Virus record (IMG/VR): IMGVR_UViG_3300012642_000011
Location: 192,001 to 256,000 of that record
Length of the DNA stretch: 64,000 nt
Source of the DNA: a virus
Direction: 5' to 3' (one strand)
Every line of letters begins with the position of its first letter. Within the stretch, counting starts at the first letter, position 1. The translations under genes and the position numbers were made by a program. The notes under the pieces are model-generated. The model did not search any database. It had not been told where the DNA came from and saw only the letters and a program-made list of their open reading frames with translations. Of the stretch, positions 16,848 through 32,496 are shown piece after piece.

Positions 16848-16914
16848 TACACTGAATCATAAATAAAAATTCTATTAAATAAAATTATTTTTCCCCAGTT
16901 AAGGAGAGATTATC

Positions 16915-18111
16915 ATGACAGTAAAATCTACCAGCCTACTCATAGGACAGACAAGCAGAGGCGTAAGGAACCCCGTCCCCTTTGACTTACACACCCCCAT
17001 AAGGAACAATCAACCACCGGGATGTGTCATCACCGGAAAACCAGGATCGGGAAAGACATACCTCCTACAATTGCTCACAACCATGTCAGCGCTGCTTGGT
17101 AAAACAACTATCGTTATTGACCTTAAAGGCGACTTCCTCAACCTGAAGCCTATTGCTGACGAAATCGGAGTAGATGCAAGATTCATTGACATTGCGAAAA
17201 AGAAAGGCGCTCTAGACCCCTTCTACATCGGAGAAAACCCAGGAGACAAACTCAGCCTTATTCTTCAAGTCATTGATACACTTGTTGGTGGCATCACACG
17301 AGATGAATCCACACTGCTCACACCAGAAATCCGAGACCTCATCCAAGCCAGTGAAAATAAAAGAAACCAGATATCACTAACCAATGTTGTCAGCAACCTC
17401 CTAAGATCCACACATAAGGATCTTGTGAACATTGGATCAGAATTAGAATCCATCAGCACACTACCCTATGCTAATCTTCTCTTTGCACCAGGTGGCGGAG
17501 CAAAAAGCAAAATTAATTACTATAAAGGTCTAACCATCTTCCCACTTATAGGACTCAAACTTCCTAACGAAGAGGACTTTGATGAAAATAATTCAAGGAG
17601 ATCAGGCGCTTCAACAAACATCAACGAAAACCTCTCATCAGCAATCATGCTCATGCTCACAGAAGTTGTTTCAAGACTCATGATGAGAGAAACGCCAGAA
17701 CCAAAGACACTGGTCATCGATGAGGCATGGGTATTGGCATCAAACAAATCAGGACAGGAATGTATTAAGAAAATCGCACTTCTAGGAAGAAGCAAGAATA
17801 TTGCTCTCGTCATGGGATCACAGAAGAACTCCCACTACAGTAATTTCGACATTGATGTGACAATCTCCACGAGATTCTGCTTCAAAACAAGTATCAAAGA
17901 AGCAGAAATGCTTGTTAAAGAAATGCAACTACCTGAAGAAGAAGGTTTTGAAAACAACCTCACAGAACTCCAAACAGGAGAATGTCTCATGATGGACTGG
18001 AAAGGAAACTACTCCACAGTACAAATCAAAACCATTAAATCATCATGGCATTACTACTTCAGAAGCGACCCACAAAAGGACGCCGCAATAAGAAGATCCA
18101 AAGGAAAATAA
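16915..18111 (+). CDS. VirB4/TrbE/HerA-like (DUF87-type) secretion/translocation ATPase, short form
   Basis: Walker A GKPGSGKT followed by VIDLKGDF, Walker B LVIDEAW, trailing LLGRSKNIALVMGSQ block typical of VirB4/TraC-type ATPase domains. Confidence 0.5.
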   Translation: MTVKSTSLLIGQTSRGVRNPVPFDLHTPIRNNQPPGCVITGKPGSGKTYLLQLLTTMSALLGKTTIVIDLKGDFLNLKPIADEIGVDARFIDIAKKKGALDPFYIGENPGDKLSLILQVIDTLVGGITRDESTLLTPEIRDLIQASENKRNQISLTNVVSNLLRSTHKDLVNIGSELESISTLPYANLLFAPGGGAKSKINYYKGLTIFPLIGLKLPNEEDFDENNSRRSGASTNINENLSSAIMLMLTEVVSRLMMRETPEPKTLVIDEAWVLASNKSGQECIKKIALLGRSKNIALVMGSQKNSHYSNFDIDVTISTRFCFKTSIKEAEMLVKEMQLPEEEGFENNLTELQTGECLMMDWKGNYSTVQIKTIKSSWHYYFRSDPQKDAAIRRSKGK

Positions 18112-18164
18112 TATGATATTGATTTCATAATGTCTGCTTCACAATACATTCAAAAGGATAAAAA

Positions 18165-19139
18165 ATGAAAAATAAACTCGGCACGAAAAGCGCCAACACA
18201 AACCTCATTATATGGATCGTCGTCCTTCTCATTGCGCTGGCAATCATGTTCCTCGTCGCACTTGTCATGAGGAACGCCACAGAAACAGACCAGTTCTACG
18301 TACTGAACACACCAGTGGCAGCAAAGAGTCAGATCACACCAGAAATGCTTGAACCAATGAACGCAGTCAAAGACCAAGCACCACCTAATGCTCTCGACAT
18401 TGGTGACATTCAAGCAGGTGGAATCTACGCTCAATACCCACTGAACAAGGGTGACATTGTCTCAGGATCAAACGTATCAGGATTCACAGATATCTCAACA
18501 GGAATCCCAGATAACTGGGTTGTCACCAACTTCGCAGTAAGCCCAGACAACGCTGTTGGCGGTAGAATCACCCGAGGCACATACTTCGACATCATGGCAT
18601 ACGATAAAGACAAGGGAGCATACTACCCCTTCGTCAACGTACTTGCACTTGACACCACTGTATCCACCAACAGCCTCTCCAGCGCACAAGCAATTGACAG
18701 CCCAGAGGCACAAGACGGACAGACACAACAATACTACGTTGGCATGTCACCTCAAGATGCAGGAAAACTTCAAGCACTCATGTCATCAGGAGACCAGATC
18801 AAACTTGTCCTCTCCCCACGACAGAATGAGTACCAGAACCCTGACCTCAACGCTTACAAGGGATTCTTCAAGTACGAGAATGACAAGGGTGAAGCCATCT
18901 GGCCAGGTAAGTCTGCAGGAGGAGAAATCACAGACTACACCTTCTCAAAGGTCGAAAGAGATGAATTCGGAAGGCCCCTACAAGGACCAGACGCTGGTAG
19001 CATAGGAAACGCTGGAATCCCAGCAAACGGAAACTCAACCGCGCCAACAGAGGACGCTCCTGAGGAATCCGCAAGCCCATCAGCATCTGAATCCACACCT
19101 ACTGAAAGCGCAAGCCCATCAGCAAGCCCCACAAGTTGA
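18165..19139 (+). CDS. CpaB/RcpC-like pilus assembly protein (SAF domain) with low-complexity Ser/Pro/Ala tail
   Basis: N-terminal TM, FYVLNTPVAAKSQITPEML SAF-like region; C-terminal ESASPSASESTPTESASPSASPTS. Confidence 0.45.
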   Translation: MKNKLGTKSANTNLIIWIVVLLIALAIMFLVALVMRNATETDQFYVLNTPVAAKSQITPEMLEPMNAVKDQAPPNALDIGDIQAGGIYAQYPLNKGDIVSGSNVSGFTDISTGIPDNWVVTNFAVSPDNAVGGRITRGTYFDIMAYDKDKGAYYPFVNVLALDTTVSTNSLSSAQAIDSPEAQDGQTQQYYVGMSPQDAGKLQALMSSGDQIKLVLSPRQNEYQNPDLNAYKGFFKYENDKGEAIWPGKSAGGEITDYTFSKVERDEFGRPLQGPDAGSIGNAGIPANGNSTAPTEDAPEESASPSASESTPTESASPSASPTS

Positions 19140-19149
19140 TAGGGAATAA

Positions 19150-19190
19150 GTAAAATAGGCGGGATGCTCATGTCCCGCCTATTTTGTTGC
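19150..19190 (+). terminator. rho-independent terminator
   Basis: aataggcgggatgctcatgtcccgcctatttt. Confidence 0.7.
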
Positions 19191-19398
19191 TTCTAAACTG
19201 AACGAATATGCTAAAATCATCATAATACAACTCTTGATATGAATCATTGGATAGCAAATAAAAACACACATAAATTAAGAACAAGACATTTAAAATAAAT
19301 ACAGTCAAGGATTCAAGCAAGAAATCACTGGACTCAAAAGAAAGAACAGATATTCACTTATAGTAAAACTGTTCGATGTAAAGACGAGAGGGAGAGGC

Positions 19399-20775
19399 AT
19401 GGTTAACAAGCCCAAAGCAGTATATATAGGACCACCTAAGATCGGTGCTGCAATTATGAAAAGAGTGACAGAATGGTCATTCGTTTACGCAGACTCCACC
19501 ATACAAGGGTTCACAGACAAACTGGACAATGATGAGATCGACAACGACATACAATGTATTCTCATCCACGATTCCCTCTACGTGCCCACAGCAGACAACT
19601 CTCCACAGCCATTCAACGTGTTTGCAGCACAGTACTCACCCTACTGCTTCTTCGGCATTCTAGAGTACCATGAGAACTACACACCAAGGATCAAGGAAGG
19701 CGTCTCATCCATCCTCAGCAACATGACAGGAGAAGATGAAACAGACCTTTACTTCATCTCAAAAGAAAACTTCAAACCAAGGCTCATCTCCAAAGTAGAA
19801 AGCTACATCTCCAAGCACGATAATGAAGTTGCCGCAATACTTGCAGGAAGAGAACCACAAAACATTGTTGACGAAGAAATCGAAACACGAAAAAGAGAAA
19901 TCGAAGACAACAATCACAGGATCGAAGAAGCCAAGTCCAAGTACCAATCAGGAGACCGTGACGGAAAAATCATTGCCTGCACCTCATCCAAGGGAGGATC
20001 AGGAAAATCAACCATCACACTTCTACTTGCAACCTACCTTGCTCATTCATCCATCCAATCTGTCAAAGACGGAGCAGAAAAAGAACCTCTCAAAATCTGC
20101 GTACTCGACCTTGACACCAAGGACGGGCAAATAGGATTCATCACAGGTGCTGTCAAGCCAACCATTACACATCTACAACGACATGGCATCACCAAAGAGA
20201 CAGTTGAACAAACTGCCATCTTCAACGACAGGCTCAAGGTTGACCTCTTCCTTGCTCCACAACGACTGCAAACAGCATTAGAGATCGAAGCAGGATTCTA
20301 CCAAGAACTCATAGCATTCCTGAGAACACAGTATGATTACGTCATCCTCGACACCTCAGTGAACTACTACGACCCCCTCCTTGGACAAGTCGCCTACCCC
20401 ATGGCAGACTTCATCATTTTCGTCACAGACATCGTGATCAACTCCATCTTCTCCATGAGCAGATGGATCACCAACGTCACCATGCCCATTGAGCGAAAAG
20501 GACTCGGAATCCCCAAAAGGAAAATCGGTATCATCATCAACAAAGCATCTACTGGTGTAAACATGCCACCAGAAAGAATCAGCAGCTTTGCAAATGGTGT
20601 CAGAATCATCACCGCAATCCCATCACAAGCCAAACTAATGGCAAACGCAGCCAACACTCAATCAATGGACCAAGCACTCAGAGACCCAACCATTAGAAAA
20701 CGAATAAGGAAGATCGCACAAGGCGTAGCAGGAAGAAACTACAAACTTGCCGAAAACTTCGCCATTGGTAGATAA
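19399..20775 (+). CDS. ParA/MinD-family ATPase with N-terminal extra domain (CpaE/TadZ-like)
   Basis: Deviant Walker A SSKGGSGKSTIT, LDLDTKDG, about 190-aa N-terminal domain as in CpaE. Confidence 0.5.
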   Translation: MVNKPKAVYIGPPKIGAAIMKRVTEWSFVYADSTIQGFTDKLDNDEIDNDIQCILIHDSLYVPTADNSPQPFNVFAAQYSPYCFFGILEYHENYTPRIKEGVSSILSNMTGEDETDLYFISKENFKPRLISKVESYISKHDNEVAAILAGREPQNIVDEEIETRKREIEDNNHRIEEAKSKYQSGDRDGKIIACTSSKGGSGKSTITLLLATYLAHSSIQSVKDGAEKEPLKICVLDLDTKDGQIGFITGAVKPTITHLQRHGITKETVEQTAIFNDRLKVDLFLAPQRLQTALEIEAGFYQELIAFLRTQYDYVILDTSVNYYDPLLGQVAYPMADFIIFVTDIVINSIFSMSRWITNVTMPIERKGLGIPKRKIGIIINKASTGVNMPPERISSFANGVRIITAIPSQAKLMANAANTQSMDQALRDPTIRKRIRKIAQGVAGRNYKLAENFAIGR

Positions 20776-20786
20776 CAATTAAATAC

Positions 20787-20836
20787 ACGACACGCAGAGG
20801 GGCCACTGATAACACTTGCTATCAGTGGCCCCTCTG
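20787..20836. terminator. bidirectional terminator between convergent genes
   Basis: cagaggggccactgataacacttgctatcagtggcccctctg 15-bp stem. Confidence 0.7.
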
Positions 20837-20868
20837 CTATGAACTCAACCATCAGGAAAATCTCAAGA

Positions 20869-22416
20869 TCAAGACTCACCACGCATGATCTTATTGAACA
20901 ATTCCAAATTGGGAGCATAAGAAGCCGCAACCTCCAAAGTACAATCATTCTTCCTCACAGCATTAGCTAAAGCATGCTCCATCGTCAACCCATTCCTAAT
21001 CATATATTGTTTAATAGACCACGTATCACCCTTCAAGATCATGGGCCTGATCTCATCAACAACAGGAAGAGCACAAGATACACTAATCAAGTTACCATTC
21101 TTCTTAGAAGGAACCAATACCTGATTCACCACCCCAATCAACTGCTCATTCAAAGAAGTCAACACCGTCTGCCTCTCCTCACCAGAATACTGAGCAATAA
21201 TTCTCGTAATAGCAGTCTCAGGACTATCAACGTGCATAGTAGACATAGAAAAGTGACCAGACTCAGCAGCCCTCAAAAACTCATCGACCTCAGACCTATC
21301 CCTAATCTCACCCACCATAATCATCTGAGGATGCTGACGCAAAGCACCCTTGATACCATCAGCAAAAGTCCTCAAATCAGTACCCAACTCCCTCTGAACA
21401 ATAAGACCTGCAGAATCATCAAAAACATACTCAATAGGATTCTCCAACGACACAATCTTCTTCGGATCTCTTCTCAAAACCTCATTCACAATAGAAGCAA
21501 ACGTCGTTGACTTACCGGAACCAGTAGCACCACACACCAAAACCATACCAGACGCCCTCTTCACCCACTCCAAAAGATAAGGATGAACACCAATCGCTTC
21601 AGGAGTAGGAATCTTAGAATTAATAATACGGAACGTCATATCCGGCGAATCACTAGTATGAGCAATATTCAACCTCGTCCTCACACCCCTATGCCTACCA
21701 GAATTAATCACATAAGCAGTATCAGCACCACGATTCTGAGCAAACTCACGCCTCTTCACATTACTGACAATCTCCGTCAAAAACCTTTCCACAACAGACA
21801 CAGGAATAACCCCGAAATCATTATAAGAACTCACTTTCTTATTAATCGTCAACCACACAGGAGCATCAGGCTTAATATGCACATCAGAGGCACCCTTATC
21901 AATCCCAAAAGCAAGAATCTCATCAATCTTTATATGAGCATAAGGATCATCTTCTTCATCATCGTCATCCTCATCAAAATAACCCTCAGAAGGATCAAGA
22001 GAGGCACGAGAGAGAATAGCATCCAGATCTGAATCAACTACACCACCACCTGATGAAACCCTCTCAGAATCGCTCTCAGGCTGTTCTACAACACCACCAT
22101 CCCTCAGAGCCAAAATGCTCTCAAAGTCATCCTCATCATCATCGTCATCATCCTCAACGATCTCTACAACCTCTTCCTCAACATCAATATTAGTATCCAT
22201 ATAGACATCAGCAGGAGAACGAGAAAGATCAACAGGAGTATCATCATCAGGCAAATCATCATCCTCATCAGAATCAAACGTAGAATTAATGATTTCCGTC
22301 TTATCCAAAAGACTCTGCTCCCTCAAAGCAAAAAAATCATCATCAGAAAACTCATCATTCTCATCTGGAAGATCATCATTCTCATCAGGCAAATCATCAT
22401 CAAAAGAAAAACTCAT
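20869..22416 (-). CDS. PilT/PilB/GspE-family secretion ATPase with about 160-aa D/E-repeat N-terminus
   Basis: Walker A CGATGSGKSTT, LENPIEY, Asp box VGEIRD, His box GHFSMSTMH; N-terminus DDDLPDENDDLPDENDEFSDDD repeats. Confidence 0.75.
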   Translation of the reverse strand: MSFSFDDDLPDENDDLPDENDEFSDDDFFALREQSLLDKTEIINSTFDSDEDDDLPDDDTPVDLSRSPADVYMDTNIDVEEEVVEIVEDDDDDDEDDFESILALRDGGVVEQPESDSERVSSGGGVVDSDLDAILSRASLDPSEGYFDEDDDDEEDDPYAHIKIDEILAFGIDKGASDVHIKPDAPVWLTINKKVSSYNDFGVIPVSVVERFLTEIVSNVKRREFAQNRGADTAYVINSGRHRGVRTRLNIAHTSDSPDMTFRIINSKIPTPEAIGVHPYLLEWVKRASGMVLVCGATGSGKSTTFASIVNEVLRRDPKKIVSLENPIEYVFDDSAGLIVQRELGTDLRTFADGIKGALRQHPQMIMVGEIRDRSEVDEFLRAAESGHFSMSTMHVDSPETAITRIIAQYSGEERQTVLTSLNEQLIGVVNQVLVPSKKNGNLISVSCALPVVDEIRPMILKGDTWSIKQYMIRNGLTMEHALANAVRKNDCTLEVAASYAPNLELFNKIMRGES

Positions 22417-22488
22417 CCCAACACCACCTCATATATACAATAAAGACAAAAACTTCTCATCATCTATTATCAACCACAAAAAGACAAA

Positions 22489-24540
22489 TCAAATCTTCCA
22501 CAAATCATTCCCCTTGAAAACACCATCCTCAGTAATCACAGGAACAATAGAAATCTTCCTCTTCTGAAAAAGATTAATCGTAGCCTTCTTAGCAATAGAC
22601 TCAAGCTTCATAGCAGCACCACGTGAATGACACACCCACACAACCTTACTATAAATCCTCTCATCATCAGCATAAGCCCTCAACGTTCGCTCATAACTAG
22701 CAGCATCCTTATTAGCAATCTCCACCTCAACAGCAATAGAACGCGGAGAACCATCAGCAGCACGAGGACGTGCAATCACAAGATCAGGAACATGATAAGA
22801 AGAACGCGTCGCCCTCTGCCTAGGCAACAAAGTCCACATAAACTCATTACCCGGCATCATCTCAGGAGAAGGAATTCTAGCACGATCAGAATGAGACAAC
22901 CACGTTTTAAAATCCGCATCCATCCTATTCATGATCTTCGGACGAAAATCATCAGCAACCTCAGTACCCCTCAACCTCGTCAAAGAAGACTGAATCTGCA
23001 ACTCCGAAACCAAATTCTCACCAGAAACACGATTACCACTCACATCAATCCTGTTATCAGAAGGAAAATCATTCAAATACAACACATTCAAACCACCACT
23101 CCACAAATGAGCAGCAACATGATTCGTAGTAAACGTATGATTAAACATAGAATACGTCACACCACTCTTCAACGTCCTCTTCACATCAAGACCAGTCAAC
23201 AACATACCAGCCTCAGTCAAATACCACACACTACCAACATGATAAATCTTCTGCCTCGTCACCAAACCCTGCTTCAACAATTTACCCATTCTCAAATTAG
23301 TCTGATTCTGCTTCGTATTCACCAAAATAGAAATATTCCTCGTCGTAGCATACTTAAACATAGCCAAAAATCTCAAAACCTCAAGATCCTTCGCATTCAC
23401 ACCAGGCAACATCCTACCCTTCTTAAAAGCATCCTCACCCTCAACAATCTGCTCCAACACCCGCACAGCCCGCACACCAGAACCATCCCTCTCCAAAGCC
23501 TTCTGAGCAAACCCCCTCACATCAGGATCATTACGCAACTTATTCACAGAAGAATTCAACCTCTTAAAAAAGTCCACCTCCTGCTCAGCCAACCTCATTC
23601 TAGAACCATCAGAACGCTTCCTACGCACCCTCTTCTGAGCACCAAAAATAATCTCCGTCTCACCATCACCAGAACCAGAATCATCCTCAACAACCATCTC
23701 AAAAGCATCCCTCGACCTAAACTCAGTCTGAGAATCCTGCACGCCAACCTTCTTATGATCATCCGACACAACAACATTAGACTCTAAGAAATCATCCCGA
23801 CGAGCACTCTTCCTACTACTCTTCTTCCTCTTCTCAGTAGCAGACCTCCTAAACTCATCCAACTCCTCACGATGCACCCTAGCCTGAGGAGTCTCAGGAA
23901 CATCCTCCGACAACACATCAGCCAACACATCACGATCCACACCAATAGCAGAATCACCACTAGGATCAGAAACAGCATCAACACCAGAAACAGAAGCATC
24001 AGAAGAAATCACATCAGTAAACTCTTCATCATCCTCATCCTCAAGGAAAAAATCAGACTCCCCATCATCAGAATCATCCTCATCCTCAACAACCAAATCA
24101 GAAGACCCACCAACAACATCATCAACACTTCCCTGACCAGAAGAAACACCCACTGAATCATCAACGCCAACCAAAGCAGACCCCATAGGCAAAGAAGGCA
24201 ACGCATCACCAGAATCAGAAGAAATCACATCAGTAAACTCTTCATCATCCTCATCCTCAAGAAAGAAATCAGACTCCACATCATCAGAATCGGAAATCAA
24301 ATCACCCTCAAAATCAAAATCATCCTCATCAAAATCCTCCCCCAAAGATTCACGCATACGAGCAATCTCCTGACGCATCAAAGCATCCTGCTGCATACGA
24401 TTCTTCTCCATCTCAGCCCTCAACTGATCAGGAGTCAACACAACCTCATCATCCTCAAAAAAGAAATCAGACTCCCCATCCACAGAATCATAATCCGAAT
24501 CACCAAAAGAAGACATACCCCTAGGAATCATCACAATCAC
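22489..24540 (-). CDS. 683-aa acidic-repeat protein with predicted winged-helix and possible C-terminal PD-(D/E)xK-like motif; candidate replication/initiator-type protein
   Basis: Tandem duplicated block GESDFFLEDEDDEEFTDVISSD; wHTH-like segment LEVLRFLAMFKYATTRNISIL; PDLVIARP...SIAVEVEIANK; adjacent to ori-like region. Confidence 0.3.
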   Translation of the reverse strand: MIVMIPRGMSSFGDSDYDSVDGESDFFFEDDEVVLTPDQLRAEMEKNRMQQDALMRQEIARMRESLGEDFDEDDFDFEGDLISDSDDVESDFFLEDEDDEEFTDVISSDSGDALPSLPMGSALVGVDDSVGVSSGQGSVDDVVGGSSDLVVEDEDDSDDGESDFFLEDEDDEEFTDVISSDASVSGVDAVSDPSGDSAIGVDRDVLADVLSEDVPETPQARVHREELDEFRRSATEKRKKSSRKSARRDDFLESNVVVSDDHKKVGVQDSQTEFRSRDAFEMVVEDDSGSGDGETEIIFGAQKRVRRKRSDGSRMRLAEQEVDFFKRLNSSVNKLRNDPDVRGFAQKALERDGSGVRAVRVLEQIVEGEDAFKKGRMLPGVNAKDLEVLRFLAMFKYATTRNISILVNTKQNQTNLRMGKLLKQGLVTRQKIYHVGSVWYLTEAGMLLTGLDVKRTLKSGVTYSMFNHTFTTNHVAAHLWSGGLNVLYLNDFPSDNRIDVSGNRVSGENLVSELQIQSSLTRLRGTEVADDFRPKIMNRMDADFKTWLSHSDRARIPSPEMMPGNEFMWTLLPRQRATRSSYHVPDLVIARPRAADGSPRSIAVEVEIANKDAASYERTLRAYADDERIYSKVVWVCHSRGAAMKLESIAKKATINLFQKRKISIVPVITEDGVFKGNDLWKI

Positions 24541-24544
24541 ACCT

Positions 24545-26050
24545 CACACTAGAATCCCATATACATATAAGATCACAACAATCAACCCTGAACAAAAACA
24601 ATCCCAACAGAAAAATCCAAGATCACGTAATTGAACAGATCAATGTATTGTAACAAAAATAAACCTACCACAACGCAAAAATATACAGCGCAAACTCCAC
24701 ACCACCAACCAAAACAACACCCTCACACAACCACACCACAATACCCAAAACAGACCATCCTATACTTTAAAATAAATAAATAAAAACAGCCAACAACGCA
24801 CACTCAAGCCAACAAACCCACAACCAACATCCAAAGCACCACAATAGACAAACACCACCTACTACACCAAACCATTAAAACAATCAGTACTAAGAACACC
24901 CACACAACAATAAACTTCATAAGCACACCACAACAACCAACAACACTCAAAGACACAAGAACACAAGCACACAAGACAACCAAGCACACAAAAGAAATAC
25001 ACCAGCAGCGCACATAACCTGAGCATAGACATCAAAGCCAAACCACGATTACAAAAACACAAATCAACCCAAAGCCACGCACACACAAAACAAAAATGTA
25101 TAAATTAAAACCTAAAATCAAACATTCAAAACACCAAAACAACGCACACCAAGACTACAAAGAACACAAACAAGCGCCCAAAACCGCCAGTATAAAATCC
25201 CACAACACACAACGTGCTATACAAACCAACCCAACACAAGCACACAAAACAAACTCTTCTACACTATAAAACTACACAACCCAACCTCAATCACGCAACA
25301 CAGTCATCACAATCAAAGCCCAAAAACAAACCTCAAAGACTCCACAGCCCAACCTAAAAACCATATAACCTAAACCAAAAACAACACAACTGAACCTAAA
25401 ACTTTACAACAAGACACTACACAGACAGAAAAATAACTCATTAAAACCTTAAAACCAATCACCACAAATTTTAAACCCAAGCATCACAAACTCCAAAATG
25501 ATGCAACACAAACCTTAAACCAAGTATTAAAAACCGCATGGCACAAAATACAAACTTTAAAATCATGCCTCACAAACTTTAAAATCGCGCCTTACAAAAC
25601 CGCACCACACATATTACAAACTTTAAAACCACGCAACAGAAGACAAAACAACCACGATACAAATACATACTACAGAACACAAACACAGTCAAACCAACAC
25701 TGCAAACACACCCAAACCAATACTTTCAAACATTCAAATCAACTTCGCCAAACACCTAAACTAACACCGCCAAACAATCAACACCAATACCCAAACAACA
25801 CCCTAAAACAAAAAACAAACACTCCAAAATAAAAATCAACAATGAAAACACTACTACACCAACAATGAAAACGCTACTACTACAACCAGAAATAAATCAA
25901 AATTATCAACACCCTGTGCAAAACATGATTCCCAACCCAAAAACCCCAATAACAACACTAAAAAATAGGAAAAAATAGAAACCATTCGAAAACGAATATA
26001 AAAATAGAAACCAGGGTACAAACCAGGTTTTACTGTCAAAAGATTTCAGA
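24545..26050. repeat. about 1.5 kb C+A-rich, G/T-depleted strand-skewed low-complexity non-coding region with short direct repeats
   Basis: Top strand almost devoid of G; repeats such as acaaactttaaaa(t/c)c at least 3 times around 25.5 kb; no credible ORF on either strand. Confidence 0.6.
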
Positions 26051-26126
26051 AGCTTCTGAAATCCTTTGTATCAAAAATCATAATTATCAACAATCCCGCT
26101 CCCGCCACACCCAGAACTACTTCTTC

Positions 26127-26178
26127 TGTGGATAACTAAACAACGAATGTGGATAAGAATACTTCTACATGTGGACAA
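26127..26178 (+). promoter_or_regulatory. cluster of three DnaA boxes (TTATCCACA x2, TTGTCCACA x1 on the minus strand) spaced 21-22 bp
   Basis: tgtggataa at 26127 and 26148, tgtggacaa at 26170, all in the same orientation. Confidence 0.5.
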
Positions 26179-26426
26179 GATGTTAACACTACAACTACAA
26201 CAAACATATATACAAATACAACGACAACAAACACACCTACCACAACTACGAATACCACCACCACGAACACGATCACAGTTAACACGATGAAGACCCTCAC
26301 AGCCTTCATCACAACCAGTACACACGCTCACGCGAACACCCCCACGCGCTCAGTACACGATCTCACGATCATCACCAACCAGCACACGCTCAAGGAACAG
26401 TGACCTGTACATGCTGACATGGGAAG

Positions 26427-26779
26427 GGGTGTGCGCATACTCTTGAGAGGCATGATCACCATGGCATCGAACAGCACCCATGGGAGGGAAGGGGTGTGCG
26501 CACATGGTTGCAAGGTCAGCGTAAGAGGACAATGGTCACGTTGATCTCATGGGGTAACGGGTGTGCGCATATAGTTGGTCTGATGGCAGGGGTCACCACG
26601 TAGGTAAAGAACTCGTGAGAGGTATAAGTCAATGCGTGGTGTTGCTCGTGAGAGAGGTACTGAGTGATGACGCGTGAGCGTGGGGATGGGTGTGCGCATA
26701 CAGTTGATGGGGAGAGTTGATCGGAGAATCTCACCTCGTGGGTAAAGTAATCATGAGGAGGAGAGAACGGGTGTGCGCA
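26427..26779 (+). repeat. five direct 13-bp iterons GGGTGTGCGCA(T/C)A with extended flanking similarity (CATGGG..A.GGGTGTGCGCAYA)
   Basis: Copies at about 26427, 26492, 26559, 26688, 26767; interspersed conserved ctcgtgagagg and gacgcgtgagcg repeats. Confidence 0.65.
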
Positions 26780-26899
26780 CACTGTTGTGAGCAGTAGGTC
26801 AGAGAAATAAAGTGGGACTATGATGAGGTAGGTTCCTCGTGAGAGGTCATCATCTGAAGAAGGGGAATCATGAGGGGGATAGTTTCCGTAGAGAACCTA

Positions 26900-27450
26900 A
26901 AGGGAACTCATGACGCGTGAGCGTTGATCATCACGTTGGTACAGGGGAGCAGAGCGGGTACTCATGAGGGGAACTGGGTACTCACGATGGTTGACTGTTG
27001 GAGGGTACTGATGGTTGCGGGGAGAGATCATGGAGCAGGAGAGATCATCATGAGGCAGGGAGATCACGGTGGAACAGGGAGATCACATGGTGGGCGGAGA
27101 GCGTGGAGATCAGAGCGGGGGAACTCATGGGTCAGTTGGTGGTTGGGGAGCGAGGGGAACTCATGGTATGGGAGGCTACTGTTGAGAGCGAGGGAGGTCA
27201 TGGTGGGAGCAGGAGAGGTCATGGTGGTTGCTGTTGGGAGCGGGAGCAGGGGAGGAGAGTGTGATGGGGAGATGATGATGGCTGAGGGGGAGGTGAGGAG
27301 AGGGTACTGTTGGGAGCAGGGGTGAGGGCGAGGAAGAGCATGATGGCTAGGTGAGGAGGCTGTGTGAGGTTGGGGAGGAGAGGGTGCTGGGGAGAGCGCG
27401 TGAGCGTGTGACGGGGGAGGTTGTTGGTGACGGCGCTGCGCGGGCGGTGT
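26900..27450 (+). repeat. G/A-rich degenerate tandem repeats (GGGAGATCAT / GGGAACTCATGG / GGAGGTCATGGTGG units)
   Basis: Visible periodic repeats; the ORFs called here are low-complexity artefacts. Confidence 0.45.
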
Positions 27451-27831
27451 CGTAGGTTTTTATTTTTTTGAGGGGGCTGCGCTCGCGGTGGGGGAGGTTT
27501 TTTAGGGACACAGTTTGGGGAGAGGAAATAATTTCATGGGGAGAGTAATAATTCTGGTCATGGTAGTGTATGCTGGTGTGGTGTTTTATTTCTTAGGGTG
27601 TGCTGTCGCCGTGGTCAGGTTGGAGTGTGCTGTGGGTTTGTGTTGTGTCGGCGGGGTAGTGAATTCGTGAGTTGACTTTTATTGTTCTCTGTGTGAGCAT
27701 GTTCTCTGTGTGAGCGTGGGAGATATAATTCGGTTGTTGTTGCAGTGTAGTGTTTGTAATGTGGTGCGACCCGCTGTTCTCCCGTGTGGGGTACTGGGCG
27801 GGCCGCTTGTGATCGTGGGGTCAGGCGTCCA

Positions 27832-27933
27832 TGTCGTCCATCTGGTCGGCAACGTAGCCGGAGCTCTTCGTGAGGAGGAAGAGGAAGATGGCGAAGTAGA
27901 GGATGATGAAGATGATTTCCATGATGTTCTCCT
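27832..27933 (-). CDS. 34-aa hydrophobic peptide (MEIIFIILYFAIFLFLLTKSSGYVADQMDDMDA)
   Basis: SD plus ATG preceded by conserved leader (catgatgttctccttgtggagtgtggggg); below the ORF-track size cutoff, translated by hand. Confidence 0.35.
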
Positions 27934-28164
27934 TGTGGAGTGTGGGGGTTTGGTCTCTTCCCTTGCCCTGTTGATGGTTTAATCATAGCATGGGGGACGC
28001 TCCATGCGCAAGGTGGTGTGGGAATTAATTTGTCGTGAAGTGGCCCGCTGTTTTCTCGTGTGAGGTACTAGGACGGGCCGCTTGCTGCCGTGGGACGGAC
28101 ATTTGTGTGCTGCTGGTTGGGTGCAGCAGTGTGTTTCCTTGTGGTTGGTGGTGTTGCCTTTGGT

Positions 28165-28311
28165 GTCAGCCGAGGTTGTTCCAGTGGGTATCGGGGGTGT
28201 GTCGGGGCTGGGTCTTGTCGTATCGCACGGTCTGGGCCTTGGGGGTGGGGTTGAGGGCGAAGAAGGATGCGATCACGAGGGTGGCGATGACGATGAGCAG
28301 GGCGGTCATGG
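28165..28311 (-). CDS. about 48-aa membrane peptide (MTALLIVIATLVIASFFALNP...)
   Basis: SD aaggagaacacc-ATG; hand translated. Confidence 0.35.
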
Positions 28312-28578
28312 TGTTCTCCTTAGGTGTCGTTGTTGGTTTAATCGTATCATGTGGTTTGGGTGTTGTCTATGTGTGCTGGTGTTCGTGTGTGGTTTTATTT
28401 AGGGACACAGGTTTGCGTAGTGGTGGTTTTCGGTTTAATTGTTCATGTTGAGTGTGTGCAAGTGTCCTCTCCGTGCGCAAGTGTCTTCTCCATGCTACCA
28501 CACGCACGCTTGCATATGCAGGAACGCTTGCACACGCCTCCCTGTGCAAGCGTTGTGTGGAGTGTTCTTGTGGGTGTG

Positions 28579-28899
28579 TTAGCCCATGAGGTAGTTGCTG
28601 TATGCGTTGGAGCATCGTGGGGAGCATACGCTGTCGTTTCCGGCGTCTTCTACGGAGAAGGTGTCACCGCAGTTGAGGCATTTGGCCCAGTGTTCTCCGA
28701 GGATAAGGATGCGGAGGTTGATGGCTGCGATTTCTCTGTGTTCTGGGTAATCACTGTTGAGGTTTTCTAGGGTGCTGGTGATGTGTTCTCGTTTGGGGTC
28801 GTTGGGGTCGAGGTTGTTCACGTATTCATTGATGGCGTGGTCTGTGAGGTTGGGGTGGGAGAGGAGGATGTTTACTTTGAGGTTGTTGATGCTTGTCAT
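28579..28899 (-). CDS. 106-aa protein with C-terminal CxxC...CxxxC zinc-ribbon-like motif
   Basis: ORF with SD; CLNCGDTFSV...CSPRC. Confidence 0.45.
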   Translation of the reverse strand: MTSINNLKVNILLSHPNLTDHAINEYVNNLDPNDPKREHITSTLENLNSDYPEHREIAAINLRILILGEHWAKCLNCGDTFSVEDAGNDSVCSPRCSNAYSNYLMG

Positions 28900-29124
28900 T
28901 GTGTTCTTCTTTCTCTTTGTATTGATGTGATGCCGTTTTTTGTTGTGAACGTGGGTAGTGTTGTTGTTTTATCGATTTCTTCTAGTTTCTTTGTCCATTC
29001 TTGTATCTGTTGCTGGTGTTGGTTTTGGTTGGTGTGATGGTGTTCTCCCTGTTGGTGGTTTTGTTTATTGTGTCGTTTGTGTTTTCTTTTCATGTTTTAC
29101 CTAGGGGCTGTATGATTTGTGCTT

Positions 29125-29383
29125 TTAATATGCGTGTTTTATTGGGAGTGTTCCTTTTCGCATGAGTGTGGTGAAGGTCCAGATGCAGGCTAGTGTGGAT
29201 GCCAGCGGCCAGAGTGGGGCGATGATGGCGATGAGGGCACCGATTTTGCGCATGTGTAGTGAGCGGTTTGTGACGTAGTTGGTAGTGTTGCTTCCTACGC
29301 AACCAGCTACGATCCAGAGGGCTACGGTGACAATCGACCATACGGTGAGGATTGTGATGTATAGAGTGTCTGGGTTGTTCATG
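29125..29383 (-). CDS. small 2-TM membrane protein
   Basis: Start at MNNPDTLYITIL; hydrophobic helices. Confidence 0.4.
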
Positions 29384-29384
29384 G

Positions 29385-29846
29385 TTAGTTCTTCCTTACC
29401 TTCCATGTTCCGATGATGACTTTTTCTCGGGCGATGCATTTTCTGATTTCAGAGTCGGATGTCCATATTCCATACCAGTATCCACCTATACCGAGTACGG
29501 CTTTCTGGGTGCGCCATGTTTTTCCGCATACTACGGCTTCGATAAAGTTACGGTTATCTGCGGGGATGATGACTGTTTTTCGTGTCTGGAAGATGGTGTC
29601 AGGCTGTTTCTCGCGTCGGATTGTGAGCGTGATGCCGTCTCCTTCGCCGTAGGTGATCCATCTGCCGTCTTCGCTTCGGCACATACCATAAGCATCTCTG
29701 TGGTGGAAGATTCCTTCGCGGCGTTCGATGACGGTCATCCCGTTCACTTTTCTTTTCCACACCCATGTGAGGTGGTCTCCCAAGATGGCGTCGTTGGCTC
29801 GTGCGTTCTCGATGATCTGCATGTTCGTGTGATCTTGTGTAGTCAT
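29385..29846 (-). CDS. paralog family A member 1 (unknown function)
   Basis: Shares N-terminal M..Q.IENA...D.L.GDH.TW and C-terminal ITIRR..K...T..IIPA motifs with the 30000..30467 and 31186..31638 genes. Confidence 0.55.
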   Translation of the reverse strand: MTTQDHTNMQIIENARANDAILGDHLTWVWKRKVNGMTVIERREGIFHHRDAYGMCRSEDGRWITYGEGDGITLTIRREKQPDTIFQTRKTVIIPADNRNFIEAVVCGKTWRTQKAVLGIGGYWYGIWTSDSEIRKCIAREKVIIGTWKVRKN

Positions 29847-29847
29847 T

Positions 29848-29997
29848 TCGTTTCCTTGACGTCGATGTGGTATGCGGCCATGATGGCTGTGATGAATGCG
29901 CAGTAGGCGGAGATTGTGTATAACTCTTGCGCTCCTGTCTTCAGGCCGATGACGACGAGGGCGAGGAGAATGAAGGTGGCTGCGATGTATTTCATGG
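29848..29997 (-). CDS. about 49-aa membrane peptide (MKYIAATFILLALVVIGLKTG...)
   Basis: Hand-translated small ORF between the two family-A genes. Confidence 0.3.
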
Positions 29998-29999
29998 TT

Positions 30000-30467
30000 C
30001 TACTTTACATGTACCGTTGATGATGTTTTCTGGGGCGACCGAGGTGTGCAGTTTATAGGATATGTCCAATTTCTTATCTGATGTGAGGATAACTTTAAAC
30101 TCTCGCCATGCTGCTTGCCATTGTCCATTGTGGTCAAGGACGGCTTCACGTGCTCTGTACTTTTTCCTTCTACCACGGCTTGGATGCGTTCATGCCCGTC
30201 AGCGGGGATGATGGCTGTCATTGGTTTTGTGGGGAGGGTTGTTTGTAGGGTTCTGTGGATGGTGAGTTCGCTTTCGCCTGCTGTGATCCATGCACCTTCT
30301 TTGTTTTTCCAGTCGCCGTTTGCGTCTTGGTGGTAGGCGGTTCCTTCGCGTTGTTGTGTGACGGTGATCATGCCATCATGGCGGGTCCGTGTCCAGATGA
30401 GGTAGTCACCGGGGAGTACGTCTTTGCATTTGGCGTTCTCGATGGTCTGTATGTTATGATTGCTCAT
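30000..30467 (-). CDS. paralog family A member 2
   Basis: MSNHNIQTIENAKCKDVLPGDYLIWT... homologous to family A members 1 and 3. Confidence 0.55.
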   Translation of the reverse strand: MSNHNIQTIENAKCKDVLPGDYLIWTRTRHDGMITVTQQREGTAYHQDANGDWKNKEGAWITAGESELTIHRTLQTTLPTKPMTAIIPADGHERIQAVVEGKSTEHVKPSLTTMDNGKQHGESLKLSSHQIRNWTYPINCTPRSPQKTSSTVHVK

Positions 30468-30690
30468 TGTGCTCCTGATTATGGGAATATTTACACTACT
30501 GATCTATCCACTGTAGCATATGTGTGTCTCGTTTTCAACCCTATTGGGGATGTTTTCTTTAGGTTGCTGTGAAGTGTTCGTGACTTTGGGGTTAGGTTGC
30601 TGTGGGGACACAATGTTGGGTGTAATAATCTTGTGTTTTCGTCATGGTGTTTTATCTGTTCTGTGTACTTTGTCATCTGTGTGCTTTGTT

Positions 30691-30748
30691 CAATCACTAA
30701 CGGCCCGCTGTCCTCCCGTGTGGGGTTCTAGCGGGCCGTTAGTGATTG
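30691..30748. terminator. long hairpin (18-bp stem) with conserved loop TGTCCTCCCGTGTGGGGTTCTA (type-1 hairpin family)
   Basis: caatcactaacggcccgc[loop]gcgggccgttagtgattg; same loop recurs at about 27756, 28044, 32670, 33540, 34418, 35157. Confidence 0.6.
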
Positions 30749-30787
30749 CTTCTGATGTGCTGACAGGAGTGAGCAGCGTGGGGGCGT

Positions 30788-31191
30788 TCAGTCGTGCGTC
30801 TTGGGGCGTCGAATCGTGATGCCGGTGATTTCTCTCTTGCCATCGCCCCAGTAGTCATCCTTGAGCATGACAGTTCCCCACGTCACATGATCTCCGACTC
30901 GGATGTGCTTGCCGGTATCGTCGTGGATGATTTCCATGTTGTCGTTGATCTGTTGTGCCGTGTTGTTGGGGGTGGCTTTACGGTTCTGCAGGTCGTTGAA
31001 GAAGTACACTCCCCAGATGCAGAGGAAGGGGAGAATCATGAGGCAGATCATGAAGTAGACGGCAGCGGTTGCATCGGTCAGCACGGGGGTGATGTCTGCG
31101 ACCATCCATGCGAGCAGGTTGTTGAAGGGGTGAGAGGCGTGCGCGTAGTTGAGCGTTTCGATGAACGTCTCGATCAGCGTTTCAATCATGA
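30788..31191 (-). CDS. family A-related protein with N-terminal TM extension
   Basis: Start MIETLIETF after SD ggagagagcatc; C-terminal GDHVTWGTVM...ITGITIRRP aligns with family A. Confidence 0.45.
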
Positions 31192-31638
31192 TGCTCTCTC
31201 CTTCGTCTTCCATGTGTCTGGGGTGATGTAGCTGGCGTACATTTCATAGGTCGAGTGGTCGTTCTCGCCCCGCCAGACACCCACCCAGACACCTTCTGTT
31301 GCGTCGTAGGTGGCATGGCGCGTCGTGTAGGTCACCTCGTCCCACACGGCCTCGATAACTCCGTGGGCAGGGATGATCTGTGTGCCGTCCTCCGTGGGGA
31401 GGCTCTTGACGGGGCGGCGGATCGTGATGGCGCTGCCATTGCCGTCGCCACCCGCGATCCACATGCCGTCCTCGGCGCACCAGTCGTCGTCCTCGTTGCG
31501 GTGGTGGGCGATCCCCTCACGGATTTCGGTGCAGGTCACGCCGCGCGCCGCCCAGGTTTTTTTCCAGGTGATGTGGTCGCCGGGGAGCACGTCGTCAGGG
31601 GTCGCGTTCTCGATGGTCTGTACGTTCTGCTCGCTCAT
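31186..31638 (-). CDS. paralog family A member 3
   Basis: MSEQNVQTIENATPDDVLPGDHITWKKTW...ITIRRPVK. Confidence 0.55.
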   Translation of the reverse strand: MSEQNVQTIENATPDDVLPGDHITWKKTWAARGVTCTEIREGIAHHRNEDDDWCAEDGMWIAGGDGNGSAITIRRPVKSLPTEDGTQIIPAHGVIEAVWDEVTYTTRHATYDATEGVWVGVWRGENDHSTYEMYASYITPDTWKTKERAS

Positions 31639-31743
31639 TCTGTTCTCTCCTTCAGAAGAAATTGGTAGGGAGTGCTTTGCTCTGTGTTGTCCTCCCTGTT
31701 AACGTGATTATTTTACCAAGCGAGGGGACGCTCTGCTGTTTAC

Positions 31744-32496
31744 TCAATCGGTGGATCGAATTACAGCGTTGTTCTTCAGCCACGTTTCACCAGACACCAG
31801 CGCATCACCGAATACATCTGCTCGCTCGGATACCCACGCGTTATCACACACGTGTGCATTGCCGGACACATTTGCCATACCGAAAATCATCGCATTACCG
31901 GACACCAACGCATTTCCAGACACGCGTGCGTTACCAAATACCCATGCTGTGCCGATCACTCGTGCATTGCCGTCCACGCCTGCATTGCCAGACACGCATA
32001 CGTTGCCAGATACGTAGGCGTTATCAGTCAGCATGGCCTTACCAACCACCAGTACATAACCGGAAACTCGTGCGTTGCCAGTTACTCGCGCGTTGCCGGT
32101 CACCCACACGTCGTCAGTCACTCGCGCTTCGTACTCCACTGTCGAGTTGCCTTCTACGCGTGCGTTGCCGGACACTTCTGCGTTCTCGAAAACCTCTGCG
32201 TTACCGTACACCCACGCGTTGTCGGTTACTCGCGCGTTATCGTACACCTCCGCTTCACCGGACACTCGCGCGTTGTCGGTTACTCGTGCGTTACCGTAGA
32301 CTACTGCGTAGTCGAATACTCGTGCATCATCGGCTACCCAAGCGTTTCCTGAAAGGTTACCCAGATGTTCCACATATCCGCCGAGATCACCGGCCTTCAC
32401 GTCATGAGTAGGCAGGTCTCGTGTGGCTCGGATACGGTGGAGCGTGCGACCTTCATAGTGAATTGTTTCATCTGTTAATTCGAAGTGAGCGCTCAT
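31744..32496 (-). CDS. hexapeptide-repeat (left-handed beta-helix type) protein, about 29 consecutive [GD]-N-A-x-V-x repeats
   Basis: Strict 6-residue period GNARVT/DNARVS/GNAEVF... after about 60-aa N-terminal domain; SD aaggagag plus ATG; the opposite-strand R/H-rich ORF 31662..32411 is its shadow. Confidence 0.6.
   Translation of the reverse strand: MSAHFELTDETIHYEGRTLHRIRATRDLPTHDVKAGDLGGYVEHLGNLSGNAWVADDARVFDYAVVYGNARVTDNARVSGEAEVYDNARVTDNAWVYGNAEVFENAEVSGNARVEGNSTVEYEARVTDDVWVTGNARVTGNARVSGYVLVVGKAMLTDNAYVSGNVCVSGNAGVDGNARVIGTAWVFGNARVSGNALVSGNAMIFGMANVSGNAHVCDNAWVSERADVFGDALVSGETWLKNNAVIRSTD

Follow-up and report, generated by a model that had tools for sequence, protein, structure and literature searches.

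A probable replication origin at a strand-composition switch in a giant uncultivated plasmid-like element

Introduction

Where does a plasmid-like element of several hundred kilobases, recovered from metagenomes, start its replication, and with which components? This question is raised by a non-coding block (24545 to about 27500) in a 64,000-nucleotide stretch of DNA, hereafter the window, which comprises positions 192,001 to 256,000 of the IMG/VR record IMGVR_UViG_3300012642_000011 and belongs to an element of about 332 kb. Within this block the base composition of the top strand changes abruptly, and direct repeats, DnaA boxes and the gene of a 683-aa (amino acid) protein with a winged helix lie close to the switch. 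An earlier interpretation, made from the letters of the DNA without database searches (the sequence-only reading), had described the region as a theta-type plasmid or phage origin of classical organization. From our analyses, we consider it probable that the region is the bidirectional vegetative replication origin of an uncultivated conjugative-plasmid-like replicon. This is supported by the skew minimum of the window, the presence of the same switch and repeats in relatives, a skew that is independent of gene orientation, and substitutions whose asymmetry changes sign at the switch. Origin-like behaviour, as indicated by the skew minimum and the conserved module of switch and repeats, was thus upheld, but the classical organization of iterons, Rep protein and DnaA boxes was not. 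The choice between plasmid and phage is narrowed to a conjugative-plasmid-like backbone.

Strand asymmetry on both sides of the switch

The GC skew of the top strand changes from -0.46 (26100-26399) to +0.37 (26400-26699), with the flip in strand composition located at 26380-26420. In the 22-kb stretch 12540-34540 the cumulative GC skew bottoms out at approximately 26394, and a coarser profile of all 64 kb gave the same place. The abrupt change from a C/A-rich to a G-rich top strand, as previously described, was therefore borne out both as a sign change and as the cumulative minimum of the window. When folded as single-stranded DNA, the switch point (26290-26450) was no more stable than shuffled sequences.

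Sliding-window and third-position skews revealed a strong, origin-centred zone of strand asymmetry at 16900-31700. On either side of the switch, the strand that leads 5' to 3' outward is rich in G+T, and this bias is strongest at the switch and fades over about 10 kb to the left and at least 5 kb to the right. In the gene adjacent to the switch (22489-24540, minus strand), the top-strand skews at third codon positions are -0.92 for G versus C (GC3 skew) and +0.92 for A versus T (AT3 skew), and about 96% of the third positions are G or T on the coding strand. Further to the left, the GC3 and AT3 skews are -0.73 and +0.83 in the minus-strand gene at 20869-22416, -0.59 and +0.46 in the plus-strand gene at 19399-20775, -0.51 and +0.40 at 18165-19139 (plus), and -0.45 and +0.36 at 16915-18111 (plus). 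The plus-strand genes, which point toward the switch, keep the same physical-strand polarity as the minus-strand genes, and on the right flank the minus-strand genes at 30788-31638 carry the AT3 bias of the flank against their own baseline. Because the polarity ignores gene orientation, the bias does not come from the genes' own transcription or codon preference. A plateau in GC3 skew of about -0.3 at 5-17 kb was also considered as replication-linked and was dropped, as right-arm genes on either strand share a coding-strand preference. The plateau is treated as a codon-usage baseline, which limits the origin-linked zone to the distances given above.

Outward transcription from a divergent promoter and operator region is another conceivable source of such a bias. 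In this explanation the MarR-like neighbouring protein would autoregulate its gene at palindromic repeats, and transcription-coupled deamination or R-loops would generate the bias. MarR-type folds are typically palindrome-binding repressors, the genes directly to the left (20869-24540) diverge from the site, as do genes on the other side in the related locus L012, and RNA transcribed in either direction would be G-rich, favouring R-loops. However, transcription of the plus-strand genes at 16915-20775 runs toward the site, yet these genes have the same top-strand bias (GC3 skew -0.45 to -0.59), which is opposite to the effect of their own transcription, and the minus-strand genes at 30788-31638 likewise run counter to it. 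Promoter scans of the region gave counts not above shuffled expectation, as did terminator scans, and five to nine operators spread over 350 bp would be unusual for autoregulation. We regard this explanation as decidedly unlikely.

Recent substitutions also indicate a replication origin. They were counted as singletons among four relatives of 90-95% identity (L010, L011, L036 and L037, hereafter the oral lineage) and polarised by parsimony. C>T and A>G substitutions on the left side of the switch amounted to 214/4133, versus 192/2641 for G>A and T>C (odds ratio 0.70, p = 5e-4); to the right of it, the corresponding numbers were 181/5122 and 216/7904 (odds ratio 1.30, p = 0.01). The substitution asymmetry thus flips sign at the switch, with keto-ward transitions favoured on the strand leading 5' to 3' away from it. 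Outgoing forks would be expected to leave such a polarity on their lagging-strand template or on a displaced strand.

Conservation of the switch in related loci

About 25 loci encoding relatives of the 683-aa protein were obtained from ENA, Logan, JGI and IMG/VR. Their contigs range from 2 kb to 727 kb and their locus GC contents from 0.37 to 0.61. Five of the contigs, each about 700 kb long, share a single JGI sample as their source, and three others of about 345 kb are of oral type. With the gene set to the plus strand, the GC skew of most loci turns from negative to positive at a point 0.5-3 kb upstream of the protein's conserved domain (contigs of 189-727 kb). The magnitude of the skew in the relatives is highest at this switch and decays within 5-8 kb; some high-GC loci have a weak or poorly defined switch.

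Repeats accompany the switch in the relatives as well. Among 24 loci scanned, 16 have 4-9 co-oriented repeats with a (C/G)(G/T)CA(C/T)AC core at most 900 bp from the switch, and these switch-side repeats usually represent the majority of the copies in the locus of about 20 kb. Examples are GCGCACACTT, CGCACACCC, ACCGCACAC, CAGCGCACAC, GGTGTCACAC and CGCGCACACCT. A second motif, CGCTSACGCG, is common to the window and the loci L012 and L032, and in all of these its orientation flips across the switch. The left block of genes is syntenic across the family, in the order RR-like, T2SSE, ParA/CpaE-like, hypothetical, VirB4-like and TcpE. Judged from these sequences, no other feature of the family is as well conserved as the sign change of the skew, and the comparison shows a conserved module that consists of a predicted winged-helix/nuclease gene, a co-oriented repeat array and the sign switch in skew.

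One locus of the oral lineage differs from the others in the vicinity of the switch. A segment of about 260 bp (L010:8380-8639), located about 600 bp from the switch, is inverted relative to L011, L036 and L037 at 96-97% identity and is flanked by TGTGTTCAT and ATGAACACA. This suggests an invertible DNA switch next to the putative origin in the oral lineage.

Direct repeats at the switch

Immediately to the right of the switch, the plus strand has five exact direct repeats of GGGTGTGCGCAYA (26427-26781), starting at 26427, 26492, 26559, 26688 and 26769. When up to two mismatches were allowed, the window contained 10 matches to this sequence, compared with 2.4 expected, and none of 100 shuffles reached 10. 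The copies extend to a consensus of about 25 nt (nucleotides), and their core TGTGCGCACA is a 10-bp palindrome. Start-to-start distances are 65, 67, 129 and 81 bp. The sequence-only reading had listed five 13-bp iterons, and five exact copies are indeed present, but a classical iteron layout was not found, the copies being 65-129 bp apart instead of in a phase of about 22 bp. Such a phase is typical of the iteron-type theta plasmid origins with DnaA boxes, known from pSC101, F, P1, RK2 and R6K.

A second repeat family, ACGCGTGAGCGT, occurs on the G-rich side (26670-27407, plus strand) with copies at 26670, 26913 and 27396. All four matches to this repeat in the 64-kb window lie in the region, three of them direct and one inverted on the C-rich side, and 0/100 shuffles reached four. 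In gene orientation the repeat reads CGCTCACGCG, which is one base off the CGCTGACGCG repeats of L012 and L032. Inverted copies of both families are found on the C-rich side (26324-26342, minus strand), namely TCGCGTGAGCGT at 26324-26335 and GCGAACACCCC at 26332-26342, the latter being the reverse complement of the 13-mer repeat with one mismatch. Owing to this degenerate inverted 13-mer, the switch point is flanked by inverted motif copies.

The neighbouring protein and the possibility of a transfer origin

The gene at 22489-24540 (minus strand) encodes the 683-aa protein; gene callers place its start 3 codons downstream (680 aa). The N-terminal half is acidic, of low complexity, repetitive and unalignable among relatives, while the C-terminal approximately 330 aa are conserved in the family alignment, with 72 invariant positions including D585, E604, E606 and K610. 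A PD-(D/E)XK-type motif, YHVPDLV...IAVEVE..NK, is found in this conserved part. The predicted local distance difference test score (pLDDT) of the full-length AlphaFold model was low (49.5), with a winged helix at residues 382-440 or thereabouts at pLDDT 69-86. Confidence in the modelled nuclease fold is only moderate, and part of its catalytic strand region falls below pLDDT 50. A Foldseek comparison with the PDB gave MarR-family regulators as the best matches, which is informative for the winged helix only, and a sequence-profile search of the PDB gave weak MarR or helix-turn-helix matches only. Covariation of the repeat sequence with the recognition helix was considered and set aside, as it tracks phylogeny and is inseparable from it.

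In all family members, the N-terminal halves are hypervariable, acidic or serine-rich, and predicted to be disordered. In the window, the DNA encoding the acidic half (24000-24490) has long internal repeats, including 76-nt copies at 24000 and 24216 that are 96% identical.

A homology search with the 683-aa protein yielded 12 relatives. An exhaustive profile search extended the family to 181 clusters (at 50% identity) at E <= 1e-30 and 761 clusters at E <= 1e-3, most of them proteins of 500-1000 aa with the domain at the C-terminus. With the conserved domain as query, tblastn gave no match in 72,556 plasmid or 50,697 phage records, and the sole match in a scan of GTDB representative genomes was a 23%-identical relative in Leucobacter. 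As far as these searches indicate, the protein family is large and essentially uncharacterised. PF13814 (Replic_Relax) was matched by 9/12 family members at E <= 1, with a best value of 1.9e-6, and one member matched MarR_2; the 683-aa protein alone had no PF13814 match, and no Pfam or PHROGs match to a Rep protein. No Rep-like gene was found among the proteins scanned on the other flank of the region. The protein thus appears to belong to a divergent Replic_Relax (MOB_C relaxase-like) family and is a candidate initiator, a candidate relaxase, or both. The earlier proposal of an acidic winged helix-turn-helix (wHTH) protein as candidate initiator is retained as to the winged helix, but the protein resembles Replic_Relax/MOB_C instead of a known Rep family.

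This kinship raises the alternative that the repeats and hairpins represent a conjugative transfer origin (oriT), at which the MOB_C-like nuclease would bind the repeats, nick a nearby inverted repeat and pass DNA on to the adjacent type IV secretion genes, with the vegetative origin elsewhere or merely adjacent. PF13814, the family matched by most members here, corresponds to the MOB_C relaxases (PMC5357655) and was placed in the PD-(D/E)XK superfamily in 2012. The experimentally studied MOB_C members are conjugative relaxases that bind direct repeats at oriT; the studied prototype, TraX of the Enterococcus plasmid pAD1, combines a winged helix with a restriction-endonuclease-like active site and binds five direct repeats located 70-120 bp from the nick site (PMC12857230). 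Our locus resembles those of TraX and of MobC from CloDF13 in having a winged helix with a PD-(D/E)XK-type nuclease, about five direct repeats together with inverted repeats, and type IV secretion genes (PMC12857230). All aligned family members retain the PD-(D/E)XK-type residues, genes for a VirB4-like AAA_10 ATPase, TcpE and T2SSE ATPases are syntenic with the gene across the family, and hairpins 350-450 bp from the repeats are candidates for holding a nick site. In contrast to MOB_C systems, the protein here is twice as long, has a hypervariable acidic N-terminal half and shows marginal similarity to PF13814, and the repeats are longer and wider apart. The site also coincides with a sign switch in skew, which oriT does not explain: transfer exposes the same strand on both sides of the nick, and alone cannot generate a skew that changes sign, although this sign change is what the family conserves best. 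DnaA boxes point to replication instead, and the window yielded neither a clear coupling protein nor a covalent-relaxase feature. A transfer origin in place of a replication origin therefore seems rather unlikely. As an additional function, the binding of a transfer protein to the repeat array is a more serious prospect, and it is quite possible, though somewhat short of probable, that the array of the replication origin also serves as the binding site of a transfer origin.

DnaA boxes and organization of the non-coding block

Three co-oriented DnaA boxes lie to the left of the switch (26127-26178, minus strand), with TTATCCACA at 26127 and 26148 and TTGTCCACA at 26170, at distances of 21-22 bp. 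Of 300 first-order Markov simulations of the window, none placed at least three boxes of one orientation within 60 bp. Since the boxes are separated by differing spacers, the trio did not arise by recent tandem duplication, and it is the boxes themselves, not a duplicated unit, that are conserved. Read on the top strand, the boxes are TGTGGATAA, a G/T-rich 9-mer in a strand that locally has 13% G and 16% T, which argues that selection may maintain the boxes against the local base composition. Two additional boxes with one mismatch, TTATCAACA, are present on the plus strand at 25903 and 26084.

The latter boxes belong to an AT-rich block (25894-26092, plus strand) that is a candidate unwinding element. 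It is bracketed by 18-nt direct repeats, AAATCAWAATTATCAACA at 25894-25911 and 26075-26092, each of which includes a one-mismatch DnaA box. Inside the block, AAAAATAGAAACCA occurs twice (25971 and 26000), and there are adjacent hairpins at 25984-25997, 26008-26030 and 26037-26068. As single-stranded DNA the block has a folding energy of -17.4 kcal/mol (z = -5.8), a stability reached by 0/200 shuffles. Its AT content of 71-78% places it in the top 0.3-0.8% of windows.

Conservation of the boxes is limited. As the sequence-only reading described, three co-oriented DnaA boxes are present, and they are non-random, but a family-wide dependence of the origin on DnaA is contradicted by the relatives, most of which have no boxes at the switch. 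We therefore rejected DnaA boxes as a family feature; clusters were found only here and in the oral lineage, and DnaA dependence would be lineage-specific at best. In the oral lineage the triplet consists of TTGTCCACA and two copies of TTATCCACA at 12-bp spacing (L010:10510-10542, L011:10510-10542, L036:9331-9363 and L037:9628-9660). It is located inside the N-terminal coding region of the homologous gene, where it encodes a repeated V-D-N peptide, and could either have a function or be incidental. Consensus DnaA boxes clustered next to an AT-rich block where the GC skew is at its minimum also resemble a chromosomal origin (oriC). Unlike at oriC, the proteins scanned included neither DnaA nor DnaN, most relatives lack the boxes, and the homologue in the GTDB representative genomes is only 23% identical.

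Between the AT-rich block and the gene lies an A+C-rich spacer (24545-25893), which is G+T-rich on the strand of the gene and has a composition of A 0.50, C 0.31, G 0.06 and T 0.13. The relatives, as judged from L010 and L012, have just 0.3-0.7 kb between the repeats and the gene, which makes about 1.3 kb of spacer particular to this element. Over 24545-26100 the top strand has 49.7% A, 29.9% C, 6.6% G and 13.8% T, and its longest G-free run is 74 nt. A top strand of about 1.5 kb with C and A only, virtually devoid of G, had been reported for this part; the A+C richness is clear at 80%, but "only" was an overstatement. Similarly, the 3-kb block had been called free of open reading frames (ORFs), which holds for 24545-26070 when ORFs of at least 80 aa are considered, whereas a few low-complexity ORFs of 84-133 aa are present beyond it. 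These had no homologue in the relatives, and the longest (26924-27325), the sole one scanned, had no Pfam match. Degenerate repeats of about 22 nt, ACAAACTTTAAAAYC, occupy 25441-25641 of the spacer (plus strand); Tandem Repeats Finder detected them with periods of 22 and 66 and 75-88% matches.

On the other side of the switch, a G/A-rich zone of degenerate units extends over 26547-27420 (plus strand), with 11 copies of TCATGR and CTCGTGAGAG-like variants. The 11 copies of TCATGR in 26400-27420 correspond to 10.8 per kb versus 1.5 elsewhere, and 0/2000 shuffles had as many; the element is found upstream of two of the five 13-mer repeats. The zone of G/A-rich degenerate repeats that had been proposed is present at 26800-27420, where the top strand has 45.7% G and 23.8% A and Tandem Repeats Finder recognizes short arrays only. 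The right edge of the non-coding block is marked by a GC-rich hairpin with a T-run (27430-27463, plus strand), which resembles an intrinsic terminator by consensus match only.

A model for initiation and its weak points

We propose that the wHTH/PD-(D/E)XK protein would bind, as a dimer, the palindromic cores of the five direct repeats; dimeric binding to palindromes is known from MarR-type regulators. Host DnaA would, in this lineage, bind the three boxes 250 bp off, and the adjoining AT-rich hairpin block would open. Synthesis would then move outward on both strands. Early synthesis would displace the non-template strands before regular lagging-strand synthesis, so that near-origin DNA would be single-stranded for a long time, and deamination of this DNA would lead to its enrichment in G+T.

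Parallels are the strand displacement of IncQ plasmids (RSF1010) and the gradient of vertebrate mitochondria. In both, displaced strands are single-stranded for a distance-dependent time, and in mitochondria the exposed strand becomes enriched in G+T in a graded manner. At our locus, the bias has the sign that fits outward displacement in both directions, an analogy drawn on composition alone. The IncQ origin comprises iterons, two single-strand initiation hairpins on opposite strands, and repA, repB and repC genes. Here, in contrast, Pfam and PHROGs scans found no RepA/RepB/RepC-type genes in the window, and the cluster of three hairpins is present on one side only. Replicons of hundreds of kilobases are not known to replicate by pure strand displacement.

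Compared with theta origins of the iteron type, the locus is alike in having a direct-repeat array beside the gene of a winged-helix protein, with DnaA boxes and an AT-rich stretch adjoining, at a flip in strand composition. It is unlike them in the spacing of 65-129 bp, the palindromic core, and a Replic_Relax-like wHTH nuclease in place of a Rep_3/RepA-type initiator. Further differences are the size of about 332 kb (up to 727 kb in relatives), DnaA boxes that are not conserved in the family, and a local strand bias far above what theta replication would lead one to expect.

Several observations weigh against a bidirectional origin of this kind. The substitution asymmetry is modest (1.3-1.4-fold) and derives from a relative, as the copies found of this element are all identical. 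The skew minimum applies to 64 of about 332 kb, and a deeper minimum could lie elsewhere; moreover, outside the zone of about 15 kb the replichore-scale skew is weak (about +/-0.035). The strand-displacement mechanism is one that we infer from composition alone. Gene orientation does not switch cleanly at the site, with the genes at 65-20775 pointing toward it. The repeats are irregularly spaced, unlike classical iterons, the AT-rich block is not the most AT-rich stretch of the window, DnaA boxes are missing at the switch in most relatives, and the adjacent protein is by homology a relaxase-type nuclease and no known initiator.

At the far left of the window, the GC skew is positive (+0.1 to +0.15) at 1-6 kb, giving a local maximum of the cumulative skew near 5-6 kb, which misfits a uniform left replichore. 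This block might be inverted or acquired.

In its widest form, our proposal is that of an undescribed family of giant replicons (0.19-0.73 Mb, at least 181 clusters, from human oral and other metagenomes), in which a relaxase-type wHTH/PD-(D/E)XK nuclease would initiate at palindrome-cored repeats, early synthesis would involve long-range displacement of both strands, and replication and transfer would share a single protein and a single site. Taken together, this combination is tentative and we put it forward as a speculation. If true, the gene, the repeat array and the skew switch would mark the origin of widespread, very large, uncultivated plasmid-like replicons, and would help to find and orient these in metagenomes. 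The role of MOB_C/Replic_Relax nucleases would widen from DNA transfer to the initiation of replication in replicons of hundreds of kilobases. The strand bias, which is near saturation, confined to about 15 kb and not expected from ordinary theta replication, would be a natural record of the time spent single-stranded at initiation, and would explain both the ORF-poor flank of the origin and the hypervariable, low-complexity, acidic N-terminal half of the neighbouring protein.

The change in GC content at the switch

The GC content climbs from 0.32-0.46 to 0.55-0.60 at the skew-switch point. The sequence-only reading had placed a jump from about 40% to about 60% exactly at this junction. The jump is real, but as a feature of the origin itself it corresponds to a weak family trend only: GC is similar on either side of the switch in the relatives, and the variable side of high-GC members is just 3-7 points above the other. 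Since the relatives have similar GC contents on both sides, the jump was assigned to the accessory arm of the element, and as far as the compared loci indicate it is a property of this arm and not of the origin.

Two further explanations take the jump itself as their starting point. In the first, the site would mainly be a recombination junction between a conserved core of 40% GC and an accessory arm of 50-64% GC, with the repeats as recombination or partition sites. GC content at third codon positions (GC3) changes from about 0.42 to about 0.79 exactly here, homologues of right-arm ORFs are absent from the flanks of the relatives, whereas synteny of the left block extends throughout the family, and the gene of a ParA/MinD-type ATPase lies 6 kb off. 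However, the same switch and repeats occur in relatives with equal GC on both sides, and are hence unexplained by a junction; the ParA-like protein, beside a weak CpaB/RcpC-like match and T2SSE/T2SSF genes, has more of the TadZ/CpaE of a Tad pilus locus. We consider a mere junction very improbable.

In the second, two organisms would have been joined by an assembly error at the low-complexity stretch, as the abrupt change in GC content and codon usage at the site might suggest. Yet 10869-32416 is covered at 100% identity by two assemblies of different naming styles (k141_... and NODE_...length..cov) from different samples, and a JGI contig also crosses 16932-26789. A chimeric join at the GC jump is ruled out by this occurrence of identical DNA in independent contigs and samples, and we give such an artefact practically no credence. 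Identical DNA (100%) around the genes of a 515-aa ATPase and a GyrA-like protein was found on metagenome contigs from at least seven samples, including a contig of 332,269 bp (ENA ERZ27289831) and a 73.7-kb contig of another naming style.

Over up to 21.5 kb, the element is 100% identical across assemblies of several independent samples or projects (L001-L006), and its nearest relatives have only 41-49% protein identity. The identity across samples suggests one clone that was repeatedly sampled, or a very recent spread.

Gene content and relation to known elements

The left arm (1-24540) has about 40% GC and is densely coding, with gene GC3 values of 0.34-0.50. Pfam and PHROGs matches in this arm comprise a PD-(D/E)XK nuclease, a GyrA-like topoisomerase subunit, a RadA-like ATPase, T2SSF, T2SSE, TcpE, a VirB4-like AAA_10 ATPase, a weakly matching CpaB-like protein and a ParA/CpaE-like ATPase; a second T2SSE ATPase is encoded at 20869-22416 (minus strand). 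The best plasmid matches of the VirB4-like ATPase are from Nocardiopsis and Bacillus plasmids, at 29% identity or less. These matches point to a possible Gram-positive-type transfer system and single out no host. The ParA-like ATPase (18165-20775) lies beside the weak CpaB/RcpC-like protein, near the T2SSE and T2SSF genes, and is more likely a pilus assembly ATPase of the TadZ/CpaE type than a plasmid partition protein. The T2SSE-type secretion ATPase at 11899-14625 (908 aa) contains a Hom_end (homing-endonuclease) insert, which suggests an intein; the orthologue in the relatives has 903 aa and the same match.

IMG/VR catalogues relatives as viral genomes. One of them, L038, is an uncultivated viral genome (UViG) of 309,534 bp that is identical over 21 kb to L032; L032 comes from a JGI contig of 681,631 bp, so a provirus had been called from a part of it. 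Neither a capsid nor a portal family was seen, and three transfer-type ATPases had only secondary, weak PHROGs matches to terminases. A megablast search with 20-30 kb of the window gave no match in 50,697 phage and 72,556 plasmid records. Rfam at gathering thresholds gave no match over the whole 64-kb window, which also has no rRNA, tRNA or tmRNA, and a permissive Rfam scan of 24-28.5 kb gave just two chance-level snoRNA matches.

Giant extrachromosomal elements have been described from oral streptococci as Inocles, with a GC content of 24-32% and the marker protein InoC of about 454 aa, in which the domain is N-terminal (PMC12340149). InoC is more than 70% identical within the Inocle family, and the origin of Inocles was called from GC skew (PMC12340149). 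The present elements are alike in being uncultivated, several hundred kilobases in size, and in having insertion-sequence-type genes and a gene with a replication-relaxation-like domain, and at least one close relative is labelled as human oral metagenome. They are unlike Inocles in their GC content of 40-57% and in the C-terminal position of the domain in a 683-aa protein, as compared with the description of InoC. An identity with Inocles, raised by the oral relatives and the similar marker domain, was set aside because GC content and domain order do not fit.

The right arm (27500-64000) has many short ORFs of 110-250 aa on both strands, with GC3 of 0.75-0.92 and a GC content at second codon positions (GC2) of 0.31-0.45; the right arm is not non-coding. 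For ORFs selected for high GC3, the mean GC3 is 0.79, with values up to 0.92. An alternative genetic code with reassigned stop codons was considered for this ORF-poor arm and rejected, given the clear codon periodicity under the standard code. A Pfam scan of 18 right-arm ORFs yielded only three matches, namely two TnpB proteins and one beta-solenoid protein (31744-32496). The two TnpB genes, of the IS605 OrfB type with a Cas12f1-like TNB domain, are located at 37786-39246 and 57837-59048 in patches of 41-44% GC within the arm of 50-64% GC, and look like insertions.

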